Shown: in pieces, positions 700-54,435 of the stretch
How the letters are laid out: each line of letters opens with the position of its first letter
Numbering within the stretch: the stretch's first letter is position 1
Sequence record: CP080654.1
Reading direction: 5' to 3' (one strand)
DNA from: a plasmid
Length of the DNA stretch: 64,000 nt
Program-made: the position numbers and the translations under genes
Notes under the pieces: generated by a model
Databases searched by the model: none
What the model saw: only the letters and a program-made list of their open reading frames with translations
What the model was told of the DNA's origin: nothing

Positions 700-804
700 A
701 TACTCCCTGCATAGAGCAACACGTTCTATGCAGTTTATGAAGGCCCCGTTAATCTTTTCGTTCCGCCAAGATTGAAGAAGATTATCGGGGTTTTTGCTTT
801 TCTG
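700..804 (+). ncRNA. copA: CopA antisense RNA of the IncFII copy-number control system. It is complementary to the repA1 leader (CopT).
   Basis: Plus strand 735-804 (ccccgttaatcttttcgttccgccaagattgaagaagattatcggggtttttgcttttctgg) matches the R1 CopA stem-loop II and its U-run terminator as I remember them. An upstream perfect hairpin, ctgcatagagcaacacgttctatgcag (708-734), corresponds to stem-loop I. The position between copB and repA1 fits. Confidence 0.7.
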
Positions 805-2275: not shown

Positions 2276-2922
2276 TTTTCTTTCTCCTTGTGTTCGCTAT
2301 GCTTTGTCGTTGATTTCATAACGCTTATGGATTTTTCTTCAGCACCGGCTTCCCGGTATTTCAGAAACTCTACGACCTTTCTTACCAGACTCTCCGAATC
2401 CCGATCGCGTAGTAGTGGAATGCCGGCCTGCCTCAGAACCTCTTCCAGCAGAATATCGCGCCGGATACGGTGTTTTTTCTGGTGTGAGGCATCATCCAGT
2501 TCAACTGCGCCGATGATAGCGAAGGTATGGATGTCAACGATGACCACATCGCAGTGCCACTGTGATGCCATCCGGAAGAGTTGCCACCAGGTCCGGGATC
2601 GTGGCCGGATATGGGGAGAGAGTGTGGCAATATCTGCCACCCGGACCTGAGGACACAACAGCCAGCGTGTTCGGCTGGTATGCCTCAGCAATGCCCGGAA
2701 AAAATGTTGTTCCCGTGGCGTCATCAGTGTGTCATTACCCACCCAGACCCGCTGGCGACACAACCGTTGCTCAGCCTCTGAGGGGCGAATACCCAGGGCT
2801 TTCAGTGACCTCAGAACCGGGGAAGTCTTCGTTACTGCGCGTCCTTTCAGAAGCAGCACCAGAAATCCCAGCAAACTCAGCACAACAACGGTACTGCCCG
2901 CCATCATTAATATCTTTGCCAT
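2272..2922 (-). CDS. DUF2726-like (PD-(D/E)xK nuclease-fold) membrane-anchored protein.
   Basis: Internal ATG gives MAKILMMAGSTVVVLSLLGFLVLLL (N-terminal TM). The C-terminal CDVVIVDIHTFAIIGAVELDDASHQKKHRIRRDILLEEVLRQAGIPLLR fits the DUF2726 pattern (hvDFvl..lvIELDdssH..r.rD.f....gi.llR) as I recall it. Confidence 0.5.
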   Translation of the reverse strand: MAKILMMAGSTVVVLSLLGFLVLLLKGRAVTKTSPVLRSLKALGIRPSEAEQRLCRQRVWVGNDTLMTPREQHFFRALLRHTSRTRWLLCPQVRVADIATLSPHIRPRSRTWWQLFRMASQWHCDVVIVDIHTFAIIGAVELDDASHQKKHRIRRDILLEEVLRQAGIPLLRDRDSESLVRKVVEFLKYREAGAEEKSISVMKSTTKHSEHKEKEK

Positions 2923-2977
2923 GTATTTTATTCCCTGATGTTCCTTTCTTTCCCGATGCGTTTTCCTGTCGTCTTCC

Positions 2978-3622
2978 TCATCTTTCTGTCCCTCTTCTGA
3001 TAAGGCAGAACTCTGCCGGCAGCCTGTCGAGCAACGCGCGGCGAAATACATTCGGCAGTCCTCTCCCGGCTACAACATCAGCAATCAGAACTGATATGAC
3101 GCTAATCTGCAGGAAGTGGCACAGGACAAAACCAATCTGATGCACCAGTTCCGCAGCAGGCATATTACGAAGAGCATTAATCAGCCGGATGGCATCCTGT
3201 GGGGAACCCCAGGCGAGAATACCGATACCGACCAGCATCACCGCCGGCGTATACAACAGCCCCCGGCTGATAACCCGTCCGGTCAGGCCTGTAAGCTCAC
3301 ACCTTTGCTGGCGAAACACCTCATCATCCCGGAGGATTTCCCATTCCAGCCGGGCCTTTTCATGGCGCGGCACCTCGGCCACCACCTGAATACCGTCGCG
3401 AATACTGACCAGCGGTGAGACCTCTGGCTTTCTCATCCGGTCGATGTGCCGGGTGTACAGGGCCAGACCGGCCCAGAACAGCGCGACAGATAACGCAACC
3501 AGATAAAATCCGCTTGCCCGGGATACAGGAGAAAATAAAACCATCTGAACCAGTGCCAGCGCGCAGCCGTATAAATAACAGAATAACTGCTGCTCAGGGC
3601 GCAGAATGAAATATCTGAACAT
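2978..3622 (-). CDS. Hypothetical polytopic membrane protein (214 aa).
   Basis: Several hydrophobic segments (LFCYLYGCALALVQMVLF; YLVALSVALFWAGLALY; AVMLVGIGILAWG). Confidence 0.45.
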   Translation of the reverse strand: MFRYFILRPEQQLFCYLYGCALALVQMVLFSPVSRASGFYLVALSVALFWAGLALYTRHIDRMRKPEVSPLVSIRDGIQVVAEVPRHEKARLEWEILRDDEVFRQQRCELTGLTGRVISRGLLYTPAVMLVGIGILAWGSPQDAIRLINALRNMPAAELVHQIGFVLCHFLQISVISVLIADVVAGRGLPNVFRRALLDRLPAEFCLIRRGTER

Positions 3623-3671
3623 ATTGATTCCTTTTTAGATAAAAATAACATTCACAGCCGTCTTAATTTCA

Positions 3672-4274
3672 TTATCGCCAGACCACTGTTTTCTCATACA
3701 CCGCAATCACACCACGCCTGATTAATTCCTCTTTAACGCGACCATAAAGCGCCATGCCTTTTGTATTACCGGACAGGGATTTAATATAATTCATCAGGGA
3801 TGAAGTATTCGCCGGGCGGTTCCCTGCAGATTTTTTACTTAATGACTGGACTTTATCGGTCAGGTGCAGCACTTCATCGTTACTGATTACCATAGGTGCC
3901 GCCTTCGGTTTCTCTGCAGAGCAAGGCGATGGTATACGGCAACATCGTCTCCCCGCCCTGCATAGCTCGGCAATGACGCCATCATAGCCTTTATCATTCG
4001 AGATAATATGAAATATCGTCTCTTCCGGTGCAGTCGCGCTAAGTCTTCCCAGCTCAAACACCAGATGGAAGTCCACATTATTTTTTGACACATTTGCAAC
4101 CTGGAATACGCTTACCGATATATCACCTGCATACGTTACAGCTGGAAAACGTATAAACTCCTGCTGAGGCCCGGTAAATAAAATAAGGCGTTCATAACGG
4201 GACAGACGGACACTTTCAAGTGTACCAATATTTTCATAATCTACGAGAGCAATAATTTTTTCAGTCATCGTCAT
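3672..4274 (-). CDS. NYN/LabA-like (PIN-fold) domain protein (200 aa).
   Basis: N-terminal IALVDYENIG....LILFTGP ... HIISNDKGYDGVI resembles the NYN-domain signature (vfiDgeNl ... sgDsDf). Confidence 0.4.
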   Translation of the reverse strand: MTMTEKIIALVDYENIGTLESVRLSRYERLILFTGPQQEFIRFPAVTYAGDISVSVFQVANVSKNNVDFHLVFELGRLSATAPEETIFHIISNDKGYDGVIAELCRAGRRCCRIPSPCSAEKPKAAPMVISNDEVLHLTDKVQSLSKKSAGNRPANTSSLMNYIKSLSGNTKGMALYGRVKEELIRRGVIAVYEKTVVWR

Positions 4275-15964: not shown

Positions 15965-18814
15965 TTATGGTAATTTACCATCCATTTTCCTTGCAGATTC
16001 TTCAGCCTTCTTCCTGAACTCCTCAGTCGTGTTGCTTAGTGGATTGTTCACTTGACCATTCAATTCCTTATTATATCGCTCATTAAAGTCATTTCCTTCT
16101 TTTTTATGTAACATCTCAAAATCTGCATTCTGTTGTTTAATCCCTTCACCTTGCTCTTTGATATTGATTTTACCAGCATTATTTATCCTGGTGTTATCTT
16201 CCACCATAGAATCCACTTGATTTCTTACGTTCTCTTTAATACCAGAATTTCGTGACATTGACTCAATATCACCACTGTGCTTGCCAAAATCGCTAACAAC
16301 AGTTTGGTCACCTGGCGTCCCGGAAACACTTGCCATACCATTACCTATATCATTTCTTCCTTGTTCAAAGGAACTGTCGATTCGTGGTTCTACTTGAGCT
16401 TTCACAAACTCTCGTGCCAGCATCTCACGCTGCGCTGCAATTTCAGGAGAGCTTGTATTGGTCAGAATGGCCTCAGCATCCTGTGGAGCACGATGCTGAA
16501 CAAAGTTCGCAAATTGCTGAGTGAGATTCTCGCTCATCTGGCCAGTCAAACTCTCAGTTCTTGAAGCCATTTCACTATATTCATGGCTGCGTGTTCTACT
16601 GGTTGTGTACTGGTCGTAACTATTTTTAGCACTAGAAAGTGAAGCAGCAAACTGATCGACACGAGAGCTTGCATTGTTATCAGTTATATTACCTGAAGTA
16701 TTAGTTTTATGGCTAACAAGATAATCACTTGCCTCTCTAAAATCTTTAGCGGCCTGACTACTTATATCATGTCTGCTATCGCTGGAATGTCGACCAGACT
16801 GGCCAACAGTATCAGTTGATCCTGTGCTGCCGCTCCCACTTATTGATCCTTTTATGCCACCTTCTACACTGGCGCCTGTAGCCAATTTCCCAATTTTACC
16901 AGCAAGCTGATCTCCTGAACTCCATCTTGCACCCACATGGGCTTCACCTGTAACTGTACCTCTAGTGGATTCATCCATGAGATTCTGAAAGGACTGCTCA
17001 TTAGATATATTATTTGCTTTTGCATTAGCAACCACCGCATTCCACATCTTACTTTTAGCCATTGTGTCTTGCGACGACTCTGTATTATCTGCTCCAGTCG
17101 TCATTGAGGAACTGGTTCCTCTGTTGGTACCAAACTGCTTTAAAACATTCCAGGCACTTGTCACGCTGCTGTTATAGCCATGCAGCGCGCTTTCGGCCTG
17201 GACATCAGCCTCACGGGCCATCTGTTGCTGCGCACTGGCTATCTGACGACCGACGTTGATATCCACCGGCAGTTTTGACATTGCACCACCACTGTCCCAG
17301 ACCATCGAGCCATCCCGCGTCTGCGTGCTCATGCCTCCATTCGCCAGCTGCCGCGACATCTGTCCGAAACTGGTTGTGCTGTTGGTACCCCAGCTGTAGC
17401 CGCTGACGTTCTCCATCTGCATGTTGGCAAACGAGTAATTGCCATCCACCACGCCGGAAGCCGCCTGCGATGTTGCACCAAGCCCGGAAGAAGAAAAATG
17501 GCTGTAGGCACTGGAGAAGGCGGCTCCCATGCTCTTCACGATCCCCCACGACAAAGGCGGTATCATCACGGCAATATAACCCGCGGTGGTCGCAATATCC
17601 GAGTTTTTGAGCTGAACCTGCGACAACTCAGAGAGAACAACCGGGACGCCATTTTGCTTCGCATAGTAGGCCATTGCGCTGTTCAGGATGGCGAACAGTA
17701 ATGGCCACGTCTGCAGCCAGATAAGCGCAAACACATACCCCTTTAACACCTGCAGCGTCATCATATTAAACATGGCGGCCATCACCATGATCGGGAACAT
17801 CCCAATCATTATCCCCATGATAACGGTCTGCATCAGCGGAAGTGTGCGAAGCGCCTGGTGCCCCATTGTGGCCTGTGCCAGCCGCTGCTTTTCAAGGGAT
17901 GAGGTGTTAGCGATATTGACCAGACTGGCGGTATCGCCGCTGCGGGCTGCATAACTCTGGATCCCGCTGCGCAGGGCGTTCATCGTGACGTTCTGGCGGA
18001 TAATCTGCCCGGCGCTCTGTCCCGAGCTGTAGAAGTAATTGTAGCTGTCGCCAATCATCTGGCTGAACAGCAGATCGGGATTAGGTTTGCCGCCAAACAG
18101 CTGACGAACATAGTAGTTCCAGGTTTTACCGCCTGTCTGAGTATCCAGCGCAAGAGCCGATTTCAGATCCCGTGAGGCCTCCTCGCATGTCTGGAACTGG
18201 TTGTTTTTATCAAACACGCCACGCAGTGGACTCGGGTTAGCAAAAATCAGGGTATACGGATCAGGAGAATTCAGTAATTCTTCAAAAGAGTACTTATGAT
18301 TGAGGAAAATATCGCCCATCACACAGTTTTGTACGTAATCGGAAAACAGCGTCGTAATCTGAGGATTTTGTGACAAAAAATCCGTACTTTTCGCGACCAG
18401 ATTACTGCCAAATAACATCCCCGTTTTACTGTACGTGACGCTGTCCGGCAGCGCGAAGACCATCTCATAACTCTGGATAAGCGCGTTTCCCACCCTCGTT
18501 GTCAGCGACGCAGGAATGGCAAGACCAATAGGAACATTATCGACTTCATAGACCTGCGCAACGTTACTGTAATCGATGATCTGCACAGGGGTACGAATGA
18601 CAACCAGCATAGAGACCAGGGTGAGGGAAAAGACCCAGCCAATAAGGTCCATTACGTTGTGTTTTTTTACCCAGTTCCCCGCCACAATGAGTACCGAGAT
18701 GGCGATACACATCTTTTCTATAGTCGACCATGTGCTGGTCCCCATAAACGCCGCAATCGCGTTCAGGTTGCCCCGTAACCAGTCGCCGCCAGCAATGGCA
18801 TATATCTCAAGCAT
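15965..18814 (-). CDS. traG: TraG (F-type) mating-pair stabilisation / entry-exclusion partner.
   Basis: 949 aa. MLEIYAIAGGDWLRGNLNAIAAFMGTSTWSTIEKM parallels the F TraG N-terminus. Confidence 0.9.
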   Translation of the reverse strand: MLEIYAIAGGDWLRGNLNAIAAFMGTSTWSTIEKMCIAISVLIVAGNWVKKHNVMDLIGWVFSLTLVSMLVVIRTPVQIIDYSNVAQVYEVDNVPIGLAIPASLTTRVGNALIQSYEMVFALPDSVTYSKTGMLFGSNLVAKSTDFLSQNPQITTLFSDYVQNCVMGDIFLNHKYSFEELLNSPDPYTLIFANPSPLRGVFDKNNQFQTCEEASRDLKSALALDTQTGGKTWNYYVRQLFGGKPNPDLLFSQMIGDSYNYFYSSGQSAGQIIRQNVTMNALRSGIQSYAARSGDTASLVNIANTSSLEKQRLAQATMGHQALRTLPLMQTVIMGIMIGMFPIMVMAAMFNMMTLQVLKGYVFALIWLQTWPLLFAILNSAMAYYAKQNGVPVVLSELSQVQLKNSDIATTAGYIAVMIPPLSWGIVKSMGAAFSSAYSHFSSSGLGATSQAASGVVDGNYSFANMQMENVSGYSWGTNSTTSFGQMSRQLANGGMSTQTRDGSMVWDSGGAMSKLPVDINVGRQIASAQQQMAREADVQAESALHGYNSSVTSAWNVLKQFGTNRGTSSSMTTGADNTESSQDTMAKSKMWNAVVANAKANNISNEQSFQNLMDESTRGTVTGEAHVGARWSSGDQLAGKIGKLATGASVEGGIKGSISGSGSTGSTDTVGQSGRHSSDSRHDISSQAAKDFREASDYLVSHKTNTSGNITDNNASSRVDQFAASLSSAKNSYDQYTTSRTRSHEYSEMASRTESLTGQMSENLTQQFANFVQHRAPQDAEAILTNTSSPEIAAQREMLAREFVKAQVEPRIDSSFEQGRNDIGNGMASVSGTPGDQTVVSDFGKHSGDIESMSRNSGIKENVRNQVDSMVEDNTRINNAGKINIKEQGEGIKQQNADFEMLHKKEGNDFNERYNKELNGQVNNPLSNTTEEFRKKAEESARKMDGKLP

Positions 18815-37998: not shown

Positions 37999-38685
37999 TT
38001 ATAACAATCTGTTAACATGCCGAGTGATAATATCCCTGACATTTTTCATTACCGGTTCCAACAGCTCACTTAGATGAAGAACGATGAAGGCATCATCACG
38101 ACTACTAATATTAAGCTTGGTTAGTATTTGACTGCTTTTATTTCTGGAAGATCCGTTTTCCAGTCCAAGAAACTGCCCCATAATCTTGTGACTTGCACCG
38201 CCTGCATAAAACCCAAAAAAATCATACTCACTTTTATCAAGCCTTTTGACAGCCCTCATAAAATTAACGACATCCGCATGCAGGGGAAGAGATCTTGTTA
38301 TTCTTTTAATGGAGTTTGATGCCCTTCCAAACTTCCATAAAAAGTGGACAGCACCATCACTGACAAATTCCTCGATCATAAAATCAAATTGCTTTCCATT
38401 GATATAAATACATCTTTCAATATGGAAGTTAGATTGTTCAATTTGAATCAGTAGTTCTAACTCTCGAAGTCCAAGAAAGGTGTCAGTACCAATCAGTTCC
38501 TCCCAACTTCGTTCGGACTGCAAAGCGCCCCCGAACTCATACAAAAATGCTGAATTGAATGCCGGAAATTCTCCTGACTGATTATGAATACAAACCGGGA
38601 AAGAATAGTGCATGATGAGCGCCTCAAGAGAAGAAGCGAGGGATTGACGGCAGGTGTCTTTTTCATTACGATCCATCGGATACAT
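37999..38685 (-). CDS. traJ: TraJ transcriptional activator of the tra operon.
   Basis: The internal ATG gives MYPMDRNEKD..., identical to the first residues of F TraJ (MYPMDR). There is a C-terminal HTH-like segment. Confidence 0.85.
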   Translation of the reverse strand: MYPMDRNEKDTCRQSLASSLEALIMHYSFPVCIHNQSGEFPAFNSAFLYEFGGALQSERSWEELIGTDTFLGLRELELLIQIEQSNFHIERCIYINGKQFDFMIEEFVSDGAVHFLWKFGRASNSIKRITRSLPLHADVVNFMRAVKRLDKSEYDFFGFYAGGASHKIMGQFLGLENGSSRNKSSQILTKLNISSRDDAFIVLHLSELLEPVMKNVRDIITRHVNRLL

Positions 38686-38694
38686 AGAGGCCTC

Positions 38695-38775
38695 CTTGTT
38701 AGGTCTACTATGGGCAGTAGGTATGAGAAGGTGAATGCTTCTCATACCTGCGAAACTCAAATTTTCACTTACTAT
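38695..38775 (+). ncRNA. finP: FinP antisense RNA (predicted), antisense to the traJ 5' UTR.
   Basis: Two adjacent hairpins on the plus strand, ctactatgggcagtag and gtatgagaag-gtgaatg-cttctcatac, followed by a T-rich tract. The location between traM and traJ is as in F. The ends are approximate. Confidence 0.5.
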
Positions 38776-41380: not shown

Positions 41381-41409
41381 TTTTTTCTCCTTAATTAGAT
41401 CTGAATTTT

Positions 41410-42160
41410 TTAAACCATCACCCGTTGAGTTGCCGGGGCCGCGGTTTTGACTTTGTGCGGGGACCTGCTGAACCTGCCCCCTGGATATAACCTTCACCCG
41501 TTTGAGAGCCGTTCGCCGCGAGGGCGTAAACGAGCACGGCCCGGTGCAGATGTCCGGGGGTGAGCGGGAAATTTTTTTCGGTCTAATGAAGCGGCAGCGG
41601 AATGGCCGGGAAAAATTTATTGCGAAAGGCTCTGCCGTCCCCTGGACAGCAAGACGGGTTGTGCTTGTCTCAGCCCCGGCGAATGGACTCAAACGGGTGA
41701 TACGGCGCCAGGGGAAAGGAGCAGGCACCCGCCGCAACGACGAAGAGCGCGGGCGCGAAACGGCGTTGCCCTGCAGAGTGCCGGCAGCTTTATCGCCGGC
41801 ACGGTGAAAGCGGCGCGACCGGAACGGTCGCAGCAAGCGCTGCTGTTGACCCTGACCTCAGACATCAGACACTAGCCGTCAGGCCCGAAACCGCGTAGCG
41901 GGTTCGGCGGAGCTTACCGCGTCTTTTCGCGGTTAGCGGAGTGTGGCTCGACGACCGGACAGCGCAGCTGGCCGGGAGCCGAAGGTGTCCAGTATGGGTG
42001 TGCTTTTAAAGCCTTTAAGGGTTAAAAAGAGACATCACAGCAGAAAGAAGAAGAGAAAGCAGGAAGACAGGGGGCAGCAAACAGGGAAAACGCGGAAAGG
42101 AAATACGGGCGGCGCGTGAGCGCGGCCCGGTTTTCCCGGCGACGCAGGCGCGCGGCCTTT
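41410..42160 (-). promoter_or_regulatory. Frpo/ssi-like repeat copy 1: a large imperfect inverted repeat able to form a ssDNA hairpin promoter, with a conserved upstream segment.
   Basis: A >90% identical sequence recurs at ~44118, ~50286 and ~53680, in the same orientation, each immediately 5' of a minus-strand gene block. Arm catcacccgtttgagagccgttcgccg pairs with cggcgaatggactcaaacgggtgata. Confidence 0.7.
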
Positions 42161-42200: not shown

Positions 42201-43034
42201 TTACGCGGCCTCCTGTATTCCGCGCAAAAAGTCCCGCATGGCCCTGAACCGGCGAAGATCTGCCAGTCGCTTTTCAAAGGCATTCAGGTAGTAAACCGGG
42301 GTATACCTCACCCGCCGGTACTGCATCGTGAGCGTGTTACCCGTCACCACTTCCGCCGCTATCCCCAGCAGTGACAGCTGGATGAAGGCCATATCTGCCG
42401 CTACCGGATCGATGTCAATGCAGCTGCCGAACATGTGCATTGAGGGGTTGATATCGGCTTCAAGCAGGCACTCTGCATAGGCGATCAGCATCCCGGCAGC
42501 CCCACACGCCGGATCGCTGACTGTGGCAATCCCTTCCCGGCGGATAGTGTCTCTGACACCTGGCATTAGCATCCGCGCCATCAGACACTGCACTGAATAC
42601 GGGGTAAAATACTGCCCGCGAAAATTATCGCCCAGCTCCAGCTCCATAAAAATAGCGCCGAGGAAATCATGAAATTTCGCCTCCAGCGCACACACCATCA
42701 GGCAGAACATTTCCTGCATGTTCGCGATGTCGGTGGCCCCGTACCGGGCGCAGATTTTCCGGCAGTTCTCCATGCTCTCCGGCGTTCGTATCCGGGCCAT
42801 ATCCAGCTCGCTGGCGGCAAGCGACAGAAAATCACTGAACACTTCCCAGCGCCCCAGATGGCGGCCCGTATCCTTAAATACGCGGATAAAACGGCTCCGG
42901 CTGTACTGCTCGCTCATCATACGCTGAACCGTGGGCACCATTTCCGCGATCTGCTGCCCTGCCTGAATGACAGGGCTGTTATCAGCGGCTTCTCTGGCCA
43001 TATTGAACACATCGGCAAAACTCAGTTGTGACAT
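42201..43034 (-). CDS. HsdM-like (gamma-class N6-adenine methyltransferase-like) protein that lacks the catalytic NPPF/Y motif.
   Basis: 277 aa. Motif X GQYFTPYSVQCLMARML and motif I SDPACGAAGMLIAY are present, with an HsdM-like segment GSCIDIDPVAADMAFIQLSLLGI. No (N/D)PP(F/Y) occurs before the C-terminus. Confidence 0.6.
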   Translation of the reverse strand: MSQLSFADVFNMAREAADNSPVIQAGQQIAEMVPTVQRMMSEQYSRSRFIRVFKDTGRHLGRWEVFSDFLSLAASELDMARIRTPESMENCRKICARYGATDIANMQEMFCLMVCALEAKFHDFLGAIFMELELGDNFRGQYFTPYSVQCLMARMLMPGVRDTIRREGIATVSDPACGAAGMLIAYAECLLEADINPSMHMFGSCIDIDPVAADMAFIQLSLLGIAAEVVTGNTLTMQYRRVRYTPVYYLNAFEKRLADLRRFRAMRDFLRGIQEAA

Positions 43035-43084
43035 GAAACATTCTCCGGTAATGCCGCCCCCTTCAGGGGGCGGCGTTTTTCACA

Positions 43085-43231
43085 TCACGCGAGGCCGAGG
43101 CCAGCGTAAACCGCGGTCATGAACTGCTGCCAGTACTCCAGCTTTAAAGCGGGAACGCGGGCTCGCTGACCACTGCGAAGGGCATTTACAAACGCGTTCG
43201 CCTGTGCGACGATTTGCGGGTCGAAATTCAT
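43085..43231 (-). CDS. Possible small protein (~48 aa), not in the ORF track.
   Basis: Minus-strand ATG preceded by GGAGAttaaacc. Hand translation gives MNFDPQIVAQANAFVNALRSGQRARVPALKLEYWQQFMTAVYAGLGLA*. It sits in the gap between the 277-aa and 115-aa genes. Confidence 0.3.
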   Translation of the reverse strand: MNFDPQIVAQANAFVNALRSGQRARVPALKLEYWQQFMTAVYAGLGLA

Positions 43232-43325
43232 GGTTTAATCTCCATGTTTATTTTGTGTATGCCGGATGCAAACTTTTGCGGGTGTCACATCCGGCGTGGA
43301 ATGAGCAGGCGAAAGCCTGCTTTTT

Positions 43326-43673
43326 TCATTTTTCGGTCAGGTTAAATCCCTCCTTAATGCGCGTTGTGATCTGCGCATGGCTCAGGTTACACACATCCCG
43401 CAGCCGGAAATATCTGGCTCCGTAGCGGGCATAGATCTCTGTCACGTCACCGCAAACCATCTCCTGCAGCATGAACGTTTCCCACTCGCCGTTCTCACTC
43501 GTTGACCAGTTGAGCGGATACATCAGGCCCAGCGCGTCATGGAATGTGTGAACGTCGATTTCTGAGGGGGCTTTTACCGCTGCTTTCTGCAGGCTCAACC
43601 AGTATTCGCGCTCTGCTTCTGCTGTAGCCAGCATTCCCGGATGGGCTGAGGATTCGGTGAGGAGTAAGTGCAT
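43326..43673 (-). CDS. Hypothetical leading-region protein (~115 aa).
   Basis: MHLLLTESSAHPGMLATAEAEREYWLSLQ... It is co-oriented with and downstream of Frpo-like copy 2. Confidence 0.45.
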   Translation of the reverse strand: MHLLLTESSAHPGMLATAEAEREYWLSLQKAAVKAPSEIDVHTFHDALGLMYPLNWSTSENGEWETFMLQEMVCGDVTEIYARYGARYFRLRDVCNLSHAQITTRIKEGFNLTEK

Positions 43674-43729
43674 GGGGTTCTCCTTCAGGTTAAGGGTTGG
43701 CAGTACCAAACCGCCACCCGATTAGGTCA

Positions 43730-44083
43730 TCAGTAATCAGCTGCCAGCTCGCTCATAAGGTCGGCACATTCATCATGAGCACGTTCTTCTTCCGCCAGCG
43801 TCAGCATGTAACCCCGTTGAGCCGCCGCGCCAATGAATACCGGACGATCTTTCAGCGGCAGCTTTTCCAGGTAAATCATAGCCATACTCAACAGACGGGA
43901 CGCATAAATCTCGTAGTACAAACCACACCCACGACTTGCCTGTTTTTCCATACGAGCCAGCACCACATCAGCGCGGATCACATCGAAAGGGTTACGGGAA
44001 TGAATGTTGCGCACAAAACAGTCAGTCCGGAGGGTTGTGCTTTCTTTGGTGGAGGGTTTTACGTTGACGTTTTGTATGCTCAT
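43730..44083 (-). CDS. Hypothetical leading-region protein (~117 aa), the first gene after Frpo-like copy 2.
   Basis: MSIQNVNVKPSTKESTTLRTDCFVRNIHSRNPFDVIRADVVLARMEKQ... An ATG lies ~35 nt from the repeat end. Confidence 0.45.
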   Translation of the reverse strand: MSIQNVNVKPSTKESTTLRTDCFVRNIHSRNPFDVIRADVVLARMEKQASRGCGLYYEIYASRLLSMAMIYLEKLPLKDRPVFIGAAAQRGYMLTLAEEERAHDECADLMSELAADY

Positions 44084-44117
44084 CCTACTTTCTCCTCTGT
44101 CTGTTTTTCTGTCTTTT

Positions 44118-44700
44118 AAAACCATCACCCGTTGAGTTGCCGGGGCCGCGGTTTTGACTTTGTGCGGGGACCTGCTGAACCTGCCCCCTGGATATAACCT
44201 TCACCCGTTTGAGAGCCGTTCGCCGCAAGGGCGTAAACGAGCACGGCCCGGTGCAGATGTCCGGGGGTGAGCGGGAAATTTTTTTCGGCCTAATGAAGCG
44301 GCAGCGGAATGGCCGGGGAAAATTTATTGCGAAAGGCCCTGCCGTCCCCTGGACAGCAAGACGGGTTGTGCTTGTCTCAGCCCCGGCGAATGGACTCAAA
44401 CGGGTGATACGGGTACCAGGGGAAAGGAGCAGGCACCCGCCGCAACGACGGAACGCGCGGGCGCGAAACGGCGTTGCCCCGCAGAGTGCCGGCAGCTTTA
44501 TCGCCGGCACGGTGAAAGCGGCGCGACCGGGACGGTCGCAGCAAGCGCTGCCGTTGACCTTTCAGACATCAGACACTAGCCGTCAGGCCCGAAACCGCTT
44601 TGCGGGTTCGGCGGAGCTTACCGCGTCTTTTCGCGGTTAGCGGAGTGTGGCTCGACGACTGGCCAGCTTTGCTGGTCAGGAGCCGAAGGGGTCCAGTGTT
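44118..44700 (-). promoter_or_regulatory. Frpo/ssi-like repeat copy 2 (shorter: its distal segment is truncated).
   Basis: Same sequence as copy 1 from aaaccatcacccgttgagttgccggggccgcgg through ...gcggttagcggagtgtggctcgacga. Confidence 0.7.
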
Positions 44701-44712
44701 GTTATGCCTTTC

Positions 44713-45063
44713 TTAACGTTCCAGGCGTTCGACGGTGGCCAGCAATTGCGGATAGGTCGCTGAGTAACACTTTTCGTACAGTGATTTAGCTGCGGGTATC
44801 CCTTCCAGATAATCATCCGAGTCCCGAATTTCCTGAGCCAGATATTCAATAAAGGCGGGTTCCACAACGGAGCCACTCAGCACATTAAGCAGAACCTGTG
44901 TTTCGTCGTCATCGAGAGGAAGGGCACAGGCCCGAACCAGATGCGCATAGCGATCAAAGATATTATTCAGCCTTTCAGTCACCCCTTCCCTGTGGGAGTT
45001 CAGATGTGCTCGCAGCTTAGGCGAAGGCGTGAAAGAGGGGTTGCGGGAGATCTCTTTTTTCAC
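44713..45063 (-). CDS. Hypothetical protein (116 aa).
   Basis: It overlaps the upstream 97-aa gene by 4 nt (ATGA), so the two form an operon pair. Confidence 0.45.
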   Translation of the reverse strand: MKKEISRNPSFTPSPKLRAHLNSHREGVTERLNNIFDRYAHLVRACALPLDDDETQVLLNVLSGSVVEPAFIEYLAQEIRDSDDYLEGIPAAKSLYEKCYSATYPQLLATVERLER

Positions 45064-45353
45064 TGGTTATCCTCAGAATACTGGCCCGACATCATTAAGA
45101 ATTTGCGCCGCTCCCTCACGAACTGTCGATACCATTTACGGGCAACACTGGCCAGATCGTCCTCAGAAGCGTCACAGTACAGCGTACTGCCCATAAACCC
45201 TCCCCCACGGCAAATCTGAGCACCTGTGTTACCAGAGTGTCCCGGGGACTCCAGGTGGACATAACCGCCACTCTCGGGTGCGTAAAAACTGAAAATTTCG
45301 CCGGTTTTACGGGATTTTATCGTGAAGTTCATGCTGGCTCTCCTTTGGCTCAC
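45060..45353 (-). CDS. Hypothetical protein (97 aa).
   Basis: Translationally coupled to the 116-aa gene. Confidence 0.45.
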   Translation of the reverse strand: MSQRRASMNFTIKSRKTGEIFSFYAPESGGYVHLESPGHSGNTGAQICRGGGFMGSTLYCDASEDDLASVARKWYRQFVRERRKFLMMSGQYSEDNQ

Positions 45354-45379
45354 CCGCGACTGCGCTTCGCCTCACTGAG

Positions 45380-45739
45380 TTAAGTGGAAAAATTGCTGTT
45401 CATTACACAATCAACTGTATGACAGATGTCATACATAATCAACAAAAAAAAGCCGGCTAACAATTGCGTTGATTCAGTCACTCCGGCAACATCAATAATT
45501 AACATCCACATAGCTATGGCAAATAACTGGCATGCAATTATCCTTGCGTTCATCATAGAACCACCTAATAAAGACACTGTTGCGGCCATAGTTATAATCC
45601 ACATTCCAGCAAAAGCAGCAAAAATAGCTGAAATGCTGAACCCCAAAAATGTAAACACTATCGATTCACGCACGGTAAGCCCGTAAAATCCATAAAGCAC
45701 TAAAATCACACAAATAAATACCACCATAAACTTCATCAT
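45380..45739 (-). CDS. Hypothetical polytopic membrane protein (119 aa, AT-rich).
   Basis: 3-4 TM segments. Confidence 0.4.
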   Translation of the reverse strand: MMKFMVVFICVILVLYGFYGLTVRESIVFTFLGFSISAIFAAFAGMWIITMAATVSLLGGSMMNARIIACQLFAIAMWMLIIDVAGVTESTQLLAGFFLLIMYDICHTVDCVMNSNFST

Positions 45740-45849
45740 AATCCCTCGCTTTCCTTTAAAATCTGCACACCCAACTTATTTCAATCTAAATTCATTAATC
45801 CATTGCCGTTTGATACATAACCCTTAAATCTCGCTGAGTTTAATATCAT

Positions 45850-46176
45850 TTAACGGACTGTTTTACCGCTAAAATAATCAGGCCGAGCCTCCAGTTCTCT
45901 TTCGATGAGTTCATCAGCAAACAGTGGGGCGGTACGATATACTCTTTTCGCCAGATTGCGTCGGCGAGCTGCAGCTTTTTGTTCTTCACTCCAGCGACGG
46001 ATCGGCTTGTCCCCACAAAAATCCAGGCACACAGCATACCCTGCCCCTGCCACCCACAAATCCATAACTGATGCTGGCGCTGGTTGTCCTTCCTCAACTT
46101 GTTCCGAAGCGAGCACCTCCACTCCTGGACACGGAGAAGGTAACTTCCAGCGCAGCGAATAGCGCCATGTCATCAA
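45850..46176 (-). CDS. Hypothetical protein (108 aa) immediately downstream of psiA.
   Basis: ORF abutting the psiA stop (46177). Confidence 0.4.
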   Translation of the reverse strand: MMTWRYSLRWKLPSPCPGVEVLASEQVEEGQPAPASVMDLWVAGAGYAVCLDFCGDKPIRRWSEEQKAAARRRNLAKRVYRTAPLFADELIERELEARPDYFSGKTVR

Positions 46177-50253: not shown

Positions 50254-50285
50254 AATGAATCTCCTTAATCTGTTGTTTTGCCTTT

Positions 50286-51055
50286 TAAAACCATCACCCG
50301 TTGAGTTGCCGGGGCCGCGGTTTTGACTTTGTGCGGGGACCTGCTGAACCTGCCCCCTGGATATAACCTTCACCCGTTTGAGAGCCGTTCGCCGCAAGGG
50401 CGTAAACGAGCACGGCCCGGTGCAGATGTCCGGGGGTGAGCGGGAAATTTTTTTCGGCCTAATGAAGCGGCAGCGGAATGGCCGGGAAAAATTTATTGCG
50501 AAAGGCCCTGCCGTCCCCTGGACAGCAAGACGGGTTGTGCTTGTCTCAGCCCCGGCGAATGGACTCAAACGGGTGATACGGGTACCAGGGGAAAGGAGCA
50601 GGCACCCGCCGCAACGACGAAGAGCGCGGGCGCGAAACGGCGTTGCCCCGCAGAGTGCCGGCAGTCCTTCGCCGGCACGGTGAAAGCGGCGCGACCGGGA
50701 CGGTCGCAGCAAGCGCTGCCGTTGACCTTGACGTCAGACATCAGACACTAGCCGTCAGGCCCGAAACCGCTTTGCGGGTTCGGCGGAGCTTACCGCGTCT
50801 TTTCGCGGTTAGCGGAGTGTGGCTCGACGACCGGACAGCGCAGCTGGCCGGGAGCCGAAGGTGTCCAGTATGGGTGTGCTTTTAAAGCCTTTAAGGGTTA
50901 AAAAGAGACATCACAGCAGAAAGAAGAAGAGAAAGCAGACAGACAGCAGGCAGCAAACAGGGAAGACGCGGAAAGGAAATGCGGGCGGCGCGTCAGCGCG
51001 GCCCGGTTTTCCCGGCGCCGCAGGCGCGCGGTCTTTCGAGGCGCGGCCAGACGGG
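50286..51055 (-). promoter_or_regulatory. Frpo/ssi-like repeat copy 3 (full length), immediately upstream of ssb.
   Basis: Near-identical to copies 1 and 4 across ~750 bp. Confidence 0.75.
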
Positions 51056-53102: not shown

Positions 53103-53333
53103 TCAGTTAAATGCGCGTTTCAGTTCCAGCGTGCGGAGTACCTGCCCGAGGGCGGTATTTTTCATCGCGGGGATGTGGACACCGCGCCCTTTGCGGTGAC
53201 TTCTGGCGATATGACGCCCGAAAGCTCTGAGAGCGGGATCAATCTCCGGTGCGGTGATATCTGCGCGCAGAATGCGCGAATGACGACGGGGCTTTACAGC
53301 GCCTGCGGAAGGTGAAAAAATAGAAACGATCAT
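53103..53333 (-). CDS. Hypothetical small basic protein (76 aa).
   Basis: ORF within the block downstream of Frpo-like copy 4. Confidence 0.35.
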   Translation of the reverse strand: MIVSIFSPSAGAVKPRRHSRILRADITAPEIDPALRAFGRHIARSHRKGRGVHIPAMKNTALGQVLRTLELKRAFN

Positions 53334-53424
53334 AAAGTTGACTCCTTATGGTAGTTAACGAAGCCGGAAAAACCGTTCGTGCGATTTTTACGGCGTGGGA
53401 GAAGCAGGGTTTACCCTGCTTTTT

Positions 53425-53652: not shown

Positions 53653-53679
53653 TTTTCTTTTTCCTGATTTTTAAAGAAC

Positions 53680-54335
53680 ATCACCCGTTGAGTTGCCGGG
53701 GCCGCGGTTTTGACTTTGTGCGGGGACCTGCTGAACCTGCCCCCTGGATATAACCTTCACCCGTTTGAGAGCCGTTCGCCGCAAGGGCGTAAACGAGCAC
53801 GGCCCGGTGCAGATGTCCGGGGGTGAGCGGGAAATTTTTTTCGGCCTAATGAAGCGGCAGCGGAATGGCCGGGAAAAATTTATTGCGAAAGGCCCTGCCG
53901 TCCCCTGGACAGCAAGACGGGTTGTGCTTGTCTCAGCCCCGGCGAATGGACTCAAACGGGTGATACGGGTACCAGGGGAAAGGAGCAGGCACCCGCCGCA
54001 ACGACGGAACGCGCGGGCGCGAAACGGCGTTGCCCCGCAGAGTGCCGGCAGTCCTTCGCCGGCACGGTGAAAGCGGCGCGACCGGGACGGTCGCAGCAAG
54101 CGCTGCCGTTGACCCTGACGTCAGACATCAGACACTAGCCGCCAGGCCCGAAACCGCGTAGCGGGTTCGGCGGAGCTTACCGCGTCTTTTCGCGGTTAGC
54201 GGAGTGTGGCTCGACGACCGGACAGCGCAGCTGGCCGGGAGCCGAAGGTGTCCAGTATGGGTGTGCTTTTAAAGCCTTTAAGGGTTAAAAAGAGACATCA
54301 CAGCAGGAAGAAGAAGAGAAAGCAGACAGACAGCA
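53680..54335 (-). promoter_or_regulatory. Frpo/ssi-like repeat copy 4.
   Basis: catcacccgttgagttgccggggccgcggttttgactttgtgcgg... is identical to the other copies. It diverges after ...gacagacagcagg. Confidence 0.7.
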
Positions 54336-54435
54336 GGGAGCAAGCCGGAAACGTAAAGATGCAGGCTGGAGAGAATATGTTTTTCATGCCGCCGGAAAGA
54401 AGCCATGATAAACCGGCGGCATACCAGACGGGGCG

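Follow-up and report, generated by a model that had tools for sequence, protein, structure and literature searches.

Organisation of the locus

We examined a 64,000-nucleotide stretch of plasmid DNA (sequence record CP080654.1), referred to here as the window. Positions 44713–45353 are filled exactly by two open reading frames (ORFs), both on the minus strand (ORF listing and reverse-strand sequence). The features of this locus are collected in Table 1. A preliminary description, made from the sequence alone, reported ORFs of 97 and 116 codons that overlap by ATGA. The coordinates, the lengths and the 4-nt overlap all stand. However, the pair is encoded by the minus strand, where the sequence across the junction is ...CAG TGA / GTG AAA.... 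The overlap is GTGA, made up of the GTG start of the 116-aa ORF and the TGA stop of the upstream ORF. The start of the first ORF also has to be moved, giving a product of 90 aa.

Table 1. Features at and around the two-gene locus, in window coordinates
Feature	Coordinates	Strand	Remarks
ORF-A, longest reading	45060..45353	-	97 aa from GTG 45353 (ORF listing)
acrIE9.2	45060..45332	-	90 aa; ATG 45332, TGA 45062-45060; AcrIE9-family anti-CRISPR
acrIE10	44713..45063	-	116 aa; GTG 45063, TAA 44715-44713; bifunctional Acr-Aca
Candidate -35, TTGATT	45437..45442	-	17-nt spacing to TACAGT; predicted from sequence reading
Candidate -10, TACAGT	45414..45419	-	overlaps right arm of operator; predicted from sequence reading
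AcrIE10 operator (putative)	45416..45435	.	perfect inverted repeat TGTATGACA-NN-TGTCATACA; 20 bp with 2-bp spacer (9+2+9)
Conserved 5′ UTR block, possible small hairpin	45347..45371	-	outer stem GGC/GCC, inner stem CGC/GCG; just upstream of Shine-Dalgarno
Frpo-like repeat copy 2	44114..44711	-	starts 2 nt past acrIE10 stop codon; context, outside operon

The longest reading of the upstream ORF was rejected. Its GTG codon has no Shine-Dalgarno sequence and is inside a conserved 5′ UTR, and the databases hold a 90-aa protein. The ATG at 45332 is preceded, at a distance of 7 nt, by the Shine-Dalgarno sequence AAGGAG. In RefSeq, the first gene encodes 90 aa (WP_004152661) and the second 116 aa (WP_004153414). 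The exact 90-aa sequence is also present in the protein collection, where most cluster members are 90 aa long among the matches listed. Furthermore, the alignment with AcrIE9, described below, starts at residue 2 of the 90-aa form. We conclude that ATG 45332 is almost certainly the true start. The downstream gene has its own Shine-Dalgarno sequence, GAGGA, 6 nt before its GTG codon. Its translation is probably coupled to that of the upstream gene via the GTGA overlap.

Between positions 44000 and 46200, the DNA is 100% identical to many plasmids of Klebsiella, Raoultella, Citrobacter and E. coli. These include pKPN4 of K. pneumoniae MGH 78578, a conjugative IncFII/IncFIB plasmid (MOBF, MPF_F). 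The surrounding genes make up a classical F-like leading region, all on the minus strand and reading toward oriT. Briefly, ssb is followed by a DUF905 gene, a ParB-like gene, psiB, psiA, a 108-aa ORF, a 119-aa membrane ORF and then the pair. Next are a repeat, ORFs of 117, 115 and 48 aa, an N6-methylase gene and a further repeat. Beyond this second repeat are DUF932 and DUF5983 genes, an SLT gene and finally traM.

The two products match the anti-CRISPR proteins AcrIE9 and AcrIE10

Searches of Pfam, NCBIfam, PADLOC and PHROGs returned nothing useful for either protein; the sole match, a weak one (E 0.0013), was to a PHROG of unknown function. Identification came only from a PDB sequence search. 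The 116-aa protein is identical to chain D of entry 8JI9 at 114 of 116 positions (E 8e-73). It also matches 9M7T (113/116), 9UER and 9M71, and all of these structures are named AcrIE10. The 90-aa protein matches 9WDL, which is AcrIE9 of Pseudomonas aeruginosa (E 1.2e-12). Here, residues 2–73 align to residues 8–79 of the structure, and 30 of the 71 aligned residues are identical. The earlier view that neither protein belongs to a recognisable family can be set aside, since both match named anti-CRISPR proteins with solved structures.

AcrIE10, discovered on a Klebsiella conjugative plasmid, acts on the type I-E* system by binding its Cas7* (Jiang et al. 2024, PMC11317147). As a result, Cascade is not assembled and crRNA is not loaded. 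With AcrIE10, targeted DNA can again enter by transformation, phage infection or conjugation, and conjugation of targeted plasmids is raised (PMC11317147). Contacts with Cas7* are made by Q56, N63, S65, E68, Y74, E78, D83 and R116, of which E78 is essential (PMC11317147). Seven of these eight residues (Q56, S65, E68, Y74, E78, D83 and R116) are kept in the window protein, while N63 is replaced by S.

AcrIE10 is also a regulator. The gene acrIE9.2 is transcribed together with acrIE10 (Tsui et al. 2026, PMC13530269). AcrIE10 is an Aca of the ribbon-helix-helix (RHH) type that represses the acrIE9.2–acrIE10 promoter, and it contacts DNA via R7, N8, S10, F11 and V28/T29 (PMC13530269). Every one of these residues, including F11 in the β-strand, is present in the window protein. 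The stretch R7–P13, together with T29, is invariant over five diverged AcrIE10 homologues. We took the RHH fold of the window protein from the solved structures. Given the literature on proteins only 2–3 residues apart, the AcrIE10 encoded here is expected to be both a type I-E* inhibitor and a promoter repressor.

The 90-aa protein shares the motifs SRKxG, QICxGG..MGSTL and RxWYR with members of the AcrIE9 family in a multiple alignment. In the same alignment, the enterobacterial proteins have a 17-residue C-terminal tail that runs past the AcrIE9 region. The window protein has the features of the enterobacterial form: it carries the C-terminal extension, is plasmid-borne and is encoded directly upstream of acrIE10. 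A full-text literature search with its N-terminal peptide found no match. AcrIE9.2 was reportedly first described by Wang et al. in 2023. The gene is carried on pKpQIL plasmids and counters I-E immunity during conjugation (Genome Medicine 2025, PMC11781037). By binding Cas7 within Cascade, AcrIE9 keeps the complex from binding DNA (Taranenko et al., bioRxiv 10.1101/2025.05.07.652737). According to the same authors, Kp_AcrIE9.2 is ~35% identical to the Pseudomonas protein, and the latter is without the C-terminal extension. In their census, AcrIE9 and AcrIE10 are co-encoded in ~96% of loci, forming the most widespread Acr locus in Enterobacterales. In one study, isolated Cas7e was not bound by purified Pseudomonas AcrIE9 (PMC12740422), which makes the exact target surface of AcrIE9 less certain. 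Of the two products of the operon, AcrIE9.2 acts as the main Acr (Tsui et al. 2026, PMC13530269).

The pair had also been likened to toxin–antitoxin or inhibitor–chaperone modules. For a type II system, the RHH protein would be the autoregulating antitoxin of the upstream protein. The outward form is similar: there are two small overlapping genes, an autoregulating RHH repressor and stoichiometry-dependent de-repression. Indeed, RHH antitoxins of CcdA, RelB and ParD-type systems show conditional cooperativity, and regulation of this operon resembles that. However, neither protein matches a toxin or antitoxin family in Pfam, NCBIfam or PADLOC. The ligand that de-represses the AcrIE10-controlled promoter is host Cas7*, not the product of the upstream gene. 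Moreover, knockout of acrIE10 in the native strain is viable; acrIE9.2 transcript rises ~80-fold and plasmid copy number is unchanged (PMC13530269). Targeted plasmids are stabilised by AcrIE9.2 alone (PMC13530269). Finally, the same repressor is found behind unrelated genes in three other contigs (L007, L009 and L103, described below). We consider a toxin–antitoxin or chaperone module highly improbable, and we treat the pair as an anti-CRISPR operon.

A putative operator overlaps the predicted promoter

Upstream of acrIE9.2 is a perfect inverted repeat. Its coding-strand sequence is TGTATGACA-TC-TGTCATACA, and it is positioned 84 nt before the ATG codon. The 64-kb window has no second copy of the repeat, even when up to three mismatches are tolerated; 0.02 matches are expected by chance. 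AcrIE10, as a dimer of dimers, binds a 20-bp inverted repeat that overlaps the -10 and -35 elements, and the 2-bp spacer is required (PMC13530269). The repeat at 45416–45435 fits this published description in its length, its spacer and its predicted overlap with the promoter. Two alternatives to the candidate -35 element were considered, a second TTGATT at 45414–45409 and the sequence ATGACA. These were ruled out on spacing or because of a poor -10. Transcription would begin from a sigma-70-type promoter (-35 at 45442–45437, -10 at 45419–45414) arranged around the operator. The transcript would have a leader of ~80 nt, after which acrIE9.2 and then acrIE10 would be translated.

The leader contains a conserved block with the consensus GAG[G/C]CGAAGCGC(N3–6)GCGRGTGAG[C/G]CAAAGGA. 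In alignments of five lineages, 6/6 pairs of the possible hairpin are kept, with one compensatory GC<->CG exchange, one G-U pair and a variable loop. Among shuffled sequences, 43/500 score equally well, and the z-score for folding energy is not significant. The pattern is only suggestive of a conserved hairpin. At the gathering threshold, Rfam placed no RNA, hok/sok or otherwise, near the pair.

The cassette is common in Klebsiella plasmids

We compared the window with hok-type plasmids, represented by pc15-k. Homology extends from within a T-run, just upstream of the -35 element, as far as the acrIE10 stop codon. Hence, the cassette comprises ~45458→44710 and is 95.5% identical between the two. 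Of 72,556 plasmid records, 2295 carry the 728-bp cassette. Identity is at least 95% for 2248 of these, and 2204 are from Klebsiella. The window allele, defined by at least 99% DNA identity, is found in ~140 of the carrier plasmids. The two-gene arrangement is not due to chance because the cassette recurs so widely and because co-transcription is published (PMC13530269). In every annotated record among the matches listed, the genes of the cassette are labelled "hypothetical protein". Public annotation of acrIE9.2–acrIE10 plasmids lags behind the literature.

The DNA adjacent to the cassette differs between plasmids. In the window, the segment at 45459–45849 is AT-rich, with a GC fraction of 0.34–0.37 compared to 0.53 for the window, and encodes the 119-aa predicted membrane ORF. 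The last codons of this ORF overlap the acr promoter and operator. In pc15-k-type plasmids, the same place is occupied by ISKpn28 and hok. These plasmids also have a 105-aa gene after acrIE10, which is probably the "AcrIE9/10a" of the AcrIE9 census (bioRxiv 10.1101/2025.05.07.652737). Using tblastn, we found no hok and no homologue of the 105-aa AcrIE9/10a protein in the window.

The adjacent Frpo-like repeat points away from the operon

The window has four Frpo-like repeats of 600–690 nt, at 41407–42092, 44114–44711, 50283–50968 and 53670–54355. Each copy aligns with the two Frpo regions of plasmid F at ~67–68% identity (E down to 1e-31). In F, one such region is just before ssb and the other is between hok/flm and the gene preceding DUF932. 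For all four copies, the orientation of the alignment equates the minus strand of the window with the coding strand of F. Folded as single-stranded DNA, copy 2 forms a long hairpin on its plus (T) strand (-166 kcal/mol, z = -8.96). Synteny with F indicates that the plus strand is the one transferred and that it serves as template. Hence, the four elements should fire toward lower coordinates. On this basis, copy 2 would drive the genes for the 117-aa, 115-aa and 48-aa proteins and the methylase (44083→42201), rather than the pair. Two proteins encoded after copy 2 have no match in PDB, Pfam or PHROG.

These orientations bear on a further part of the preliminary description, which had the pair immediately downstream of copy 2 and expressed within a second Frpo-driven block. 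Copy 2 does adjoin the pair, beginning 2 nt past the acrIE10 stop codon. However, the pair is downstream in plus-strand coordinates only. In the direction of transcription it is upstream; transcription of the pair runs toward copy 2, which is 3′ of acrIE10 and itself fires away toward 44083→42201. The alignments to the two Frpo regions of F, with window-minus equal to F coding strand throughout, contradict the proposed arrangement. So do the low-coordinate ends of the repeats, which enter the starts of downstream minus-strand genes; the copy before ssb runs into ssb itself. After copy 2 there is a 132-aa ORF, and fragments in its protein cluster are annotated as partial SSB. We give expression of the pair from copy 2 virtually no credence.

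Along the direction of transcription, only one Frpo-like element precedes the pair, namely the copy before ssb (50283–50968), ~4.9 kb away. Besides using its own promoter, the operon could be expressed very early, on the incoming single strand, by read-through from this element. The path, via ssb, the parB-like gene, psiB, psiA, the 108-aa ORF and the 119-aa ORF, has one strand and one orientation. A simple scan of the window identified no intrinsic-terminator-like site on the minus strand from psiA to the acr promoter. In hok-type plasmids, a canonical terminator, GCCTGCTTTTTAAGCAGGC followed by a T-run, is directly before the -35 element; in the window, the AT-rich insert replaces the stem. 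Leading-region Acr genes under Frpo control strongly raise conjugation into CRISPR-positive recipients (PMC11541004). Against this, the distance to be read through is long, and in most plasmids the terminator and ISKpn28 intervene. Furthermore, for AcrIE9 operons the census authors were unable to predict upstream single-strand promoters (bioRxiv 10.1101/2025.05.07.652737). We regard read-through as possible in this allele but unlikely. If it does occur, the operon would be expressed before second-strand synthesis.

The same operator and repressor accompany other genes

A scan of a genome collection with AcrIE10 recovered only 3 loci. One further set of loci came from searching with the repeat. 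L007, a Pseudoalteromonas contig that encodes an AcrIE10 homologue with 62% identity and has the same repeat, was located via the protein, not the repeat. Two viral contigs (L008 and L009) and a metagenome contig (L103) were located by searching for the repeat itself. In these three, a gene for an AcrIE10-like protein (52–71% identical) is just downstream of the repeat. Upstream of the AcrIE10-like genes of all four loci, the repeat has the invariant core GTATGACA-NN-TGTCATAC. The geometry of the window promoter is also repeated, with a TYGAY -35, 17 nt and a TACNNT -10. The counterparts of the -10 are TACTAT (L007), TACACT (L008), TACAAT (L009) and TACTAT (L103). The operator is 84–87 nt away from the first start codon in L007, L008 and L009; L103 keeps the repeat, the -35 and the -10.

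When metagenomes were scanned for the 16-base operator core, 120 loci came up, only ~10 of which have an AcrIE10-like gene. The remaining loci, with no such gene, were dismissed as chance palindromes.

The genes accompanied by the operator, leader and repressor vary. In L007, the cargo consists of 80-aa and 193-aa proteins, encoded at 2129–2371 and 2423–3004 of that contig. In L009 it is a very acidic 172-aa protein, encoded at 3572–4090, and in L103 a 69-aa protein, encoded at 465–256. None of the L007, L009 and L103 cargo proteins has a match in Pfam, PHROG or PDB.

The AcrIE10-type cassette consists of the RHH repressor, the GTATGACA-NN-TGTCATAC operator and a conserved leader of ~85 nt with a possible hairpin. 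Tentatively, and with less than even confidence, we propose that this cassette is a portable module not tied to AcrIE9, and that loss of the terminator in the window might also allow Frpo read-through. If this is true, the unrelated cargo genes are new anti-defence or anti-CRISPR candidates through guilt by association.

Discussion

We conclude, with a probability of roughly 95%, that these two genes form the anti-CRISPR operon acrIE9.2–acrIE10, carried by the leading region of a conjugative Klebsiella plasmid of the pKPN4/pKpQIL-like IncFII(K) type. Homology, position and matching descriptions are what identify ORF-A as the likely AcrIE9.2, and 45416–45435 as the likely published operator. 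The preliminary suggestion that the genes are anti-defence effectors in a plasmid leading region was well founded: one product is AcrIE10 and the other an AcrIE9 homologue (AcrIE9.2), both with published anti-CRISPR activity.

Our model draws on the published work for near-identical proteins. AcrIE9.2 would be the main inhibitor, acting on Cas7 in assembled type I-E or I-E* Cascade to block DNA binding. The AcrIE10 dimer would place its C-terminal helical domain in the crRNA groove of free Cas7*, so that Cascade does not assemble. The N-terminal ribbon-helix-helix of AcrIE10, as a dimer of dimers, would occupy the promoter repeat and repress transcription ~80-fold. Cas7* lifts this repression in a stoichiometry-dependent manner (PMC13530269). 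Excess Cas7* would do so by disrupting the dimer-of-dimers contact, leaving the operon de-repressed. Since Cas7* de-represses the operon, Acr output should be tuned to the CRISPR level of the host. A naive recipient contains no repressor. Hence, the operon should fire once its promoter becomes double-stranded, and would then shut itself down.

The pair is already known as an experimentally characterised Acr/Aca operon of Klebsiella IncFII resistance plasmids. The work was published between 2023 and 2026, and the window brings no new biology for the pair itself. Our re-analysis maps the operator and promoter in this allele, and the position of the pair relative to the Frpo-like repeats. From other contigs, it adds a few uncharacterised genes that share this repressor. 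Modestly new material is limited to such side leads, namely the same-operator cargo genes and the possible leader hairpin. The locus carries clinical weight. Through it, blaKPC plasmids and other resistance plasmids of the IncFII group can enter and persist in Klebsiella clones with type I-E or I-E* CRISPR-Cas. The CRISPR-Cas systems of such clones target those very plasmids.

Comparison with known systems

The closest relatives are the AcrIE10 proteins of the K. pneumoniae Kp7450/R41 plasmids (GenBank OQ389520). As there, the window protein has 116 aa and its gene has a GTG start; 9UER was deposited with V1. In both cases the gene follows acrIE9.2 directly, and the plasmid is a conjugative IncFII element of Klebsiella. 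The window protein has E115 where the R41 protein has D. Compared to AcrIE10 of 8JI9, the pKPN4-type allele in the window has N63S, at a residue that hydrogen bonds with Cas7*, and Q101Y.

For the upstream protein, identity to Pseudomonas AcrIE9 is 42% over the aligned part and 33% over the full length. Compared to the pc15-k-type allele, ORF-A is 93% identical, with 6 of 90 residues different. The AcrIE9.2 allele of the window has E20, S34, R42, Y52, D54 and M80. Like enterobacterial AcrIE9.2 (Ec_AcrIE9), it has a C-terminal extension and is paired with acrIE10, as in the great majority (~96%) of loci.

In its neighbourhood and strand, the pair resembles the Frpo-driven leading-region genes of F and ColIb-P9, such as ssb, psiB and ardA. 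As for those genes, the template is the incoming T-strand, and four Frpo-like repeats are nearby. In contrast, the pair has no Frpo-like element directly upstream and has its own predicted double-strand promoter and operator.

In its regulation, the operon resembles those of AcrIIA1, AcrIIA13-15, AcrIF24 and Aca1–Aca10, since these acr operons are negatively autoregulated via an inverted repeat that overlaps the promoter. Unlike these bifunctional Acr-Aca proteins and Aca1–Aca10, however, AcrIE10 binds DNA with a ribbon-helix-helix rather than a helix-turn-helix domain, and its de-repression is set by the amount of the target protein, Cas7*.

Operator and leader are shared by modules with other cargo

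The operator, promoter geometry and leader of the acrIE9.2–acrIE10 pair recur at three loci with different cargo. These are a Pseudoalteromonas contig (L007), a viral contig (L009) and a metagenome contig (L103). Each module encodes an AcrIE10-like RHH protein, 52–71% identical. The cargo ORFs that these elements control are unannotated and unrelated, and searches of Pfam, PHROG and PDB returned no matches for any of them. It is possible that they are new anti-defence genes. A second viral contig (L008) has an acr-like pair behind the same operator as the window. Here, the acrIE9-like gene is diverged (46% identical) and the acrIE10-like gene is 63% identical. The two genes are separated by 42 nt, whereas those of the window overlap. 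Hence, conservation of the module does not extend to the gene overlap.

The leader contains a conserved block before the Shine-Dalgarno sequence, with a candidate two-stem hairpin. In the leader alignment (A4), all six pairs are kept across five lineages, with one compensatory GC<->CG change and one G-U. The loops are variable, that of L103 being a GAAA tetraloop. Among shuffled controls, 43/500 scored equally well, and the folding z-score was approximately 0. Statistical support for the hairpin is not convincing.

Frpo-like copy 2 drives a different gene block

The preliminary description placed the acr pair in a block driven by Frpo-like copy 2. The block actually driven by this repeat is on the minus strand at 42201–44083. 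Two of its products, the 117-aa and 115-aa proteins, had no matches in Pfam, NCBIfam, PADLOC or PDB. They are better candidates for unknown early leading-region effectors than the acr pair. All four Frpo-like repeats of the window have the same orientation and each ends where a minus-strand gene block starts. Their cores are ~90–100% alike, and the single-stranded DNA fold of copy 2 has a z-score of -8.96. The repeats share ~67–68% identity with both Frpo regions of plasmid F. Elsewhere in the window, an Rfam search at the gathering threshold identified four RNA features.

Features of the window and related loci
Feature	Locus	Coordinates	Strand	Remarks
CopA-like RNA	window	711-799		Rfam; replication control
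AS-traG	window	18010-18095		Rfam
FinP	window	38679-38757		Rfam
Frpo-like repeat	window	41407-42092
N6-adenine methylase	window	42201-43034	minus	copy-2 block
48-aa ORF	window	43085-43231	minus	copy-2 block
115-aa ORF	window	43326-43673	minus	copy-2 block
117-aa ORF	window	43730-44083	minus	copy-2 block
Frpo-like copy 2	window	44114-44711
5'UTR block	window	45347-45371	minus
AT-rich insert	window	45380-45849		GC 0.34–0.37 (window 0.53)
119-aa ORF	window	45739-45380	minus	within AT-rich insert
108-aa ORF	window	45850-46176	minus	abuts psiA stop codon (46177)
Frpo-like repeat	window	50283-50968
AS-pc01	window	53328-53424		Rfam; between the Frpo-like repeats at 50283-50968 and 53670-54355
Frpo-like repeat	window	53670-54355
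Module	L007	2025-3351		cargo: 80-aa and 193-aa ORFs
Module	L009	3467-4494		cargo: 172-aa ORF, acidic
Module	L103	573-2	minus	cargo: 69-aa ORF
acrIE9-like and acrIE10-like genes	L008	700-1455	minus
105-aa gene	L003, L004	4243-4560		directly 3' of acrIE10

Carrier plasmids differ on both sides of the pair

Among the 2295 carrier plasmids, all annotated rows listed label both acr genes 'hypothetical protein'. Neither NCBIfam nor Pfam has a model for either protein. The 2023–2026 literature on the pair runs ahead of public annotation.

Upstream of the pair, the AT-rich insert encodes a predicted multi-pass membrane protein of 119 aa, with a good Shine-Dalgarno sequence. The 3' end of this ORF overlaps the acr promoter and operator. 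At the same site, pc15-k-type plasmids have an ISKpn28 and hok segment, and their hok terminator stem is replaced by the insert in the window. These plasmids likewise keep the 108-aa ORF after psiA; no family matches were found for it.

On the other side, no homologue of the 105-aa gene of pc15-k (L003) and a second carrier locus (L004) was found in the window. This gene is probably the published 'AcrIE9/10a'. In the majority of carrier plasmids it follows acrIE10 at once, whereas in the window acrIE10 is followed directly by the Frpo-like repeat.
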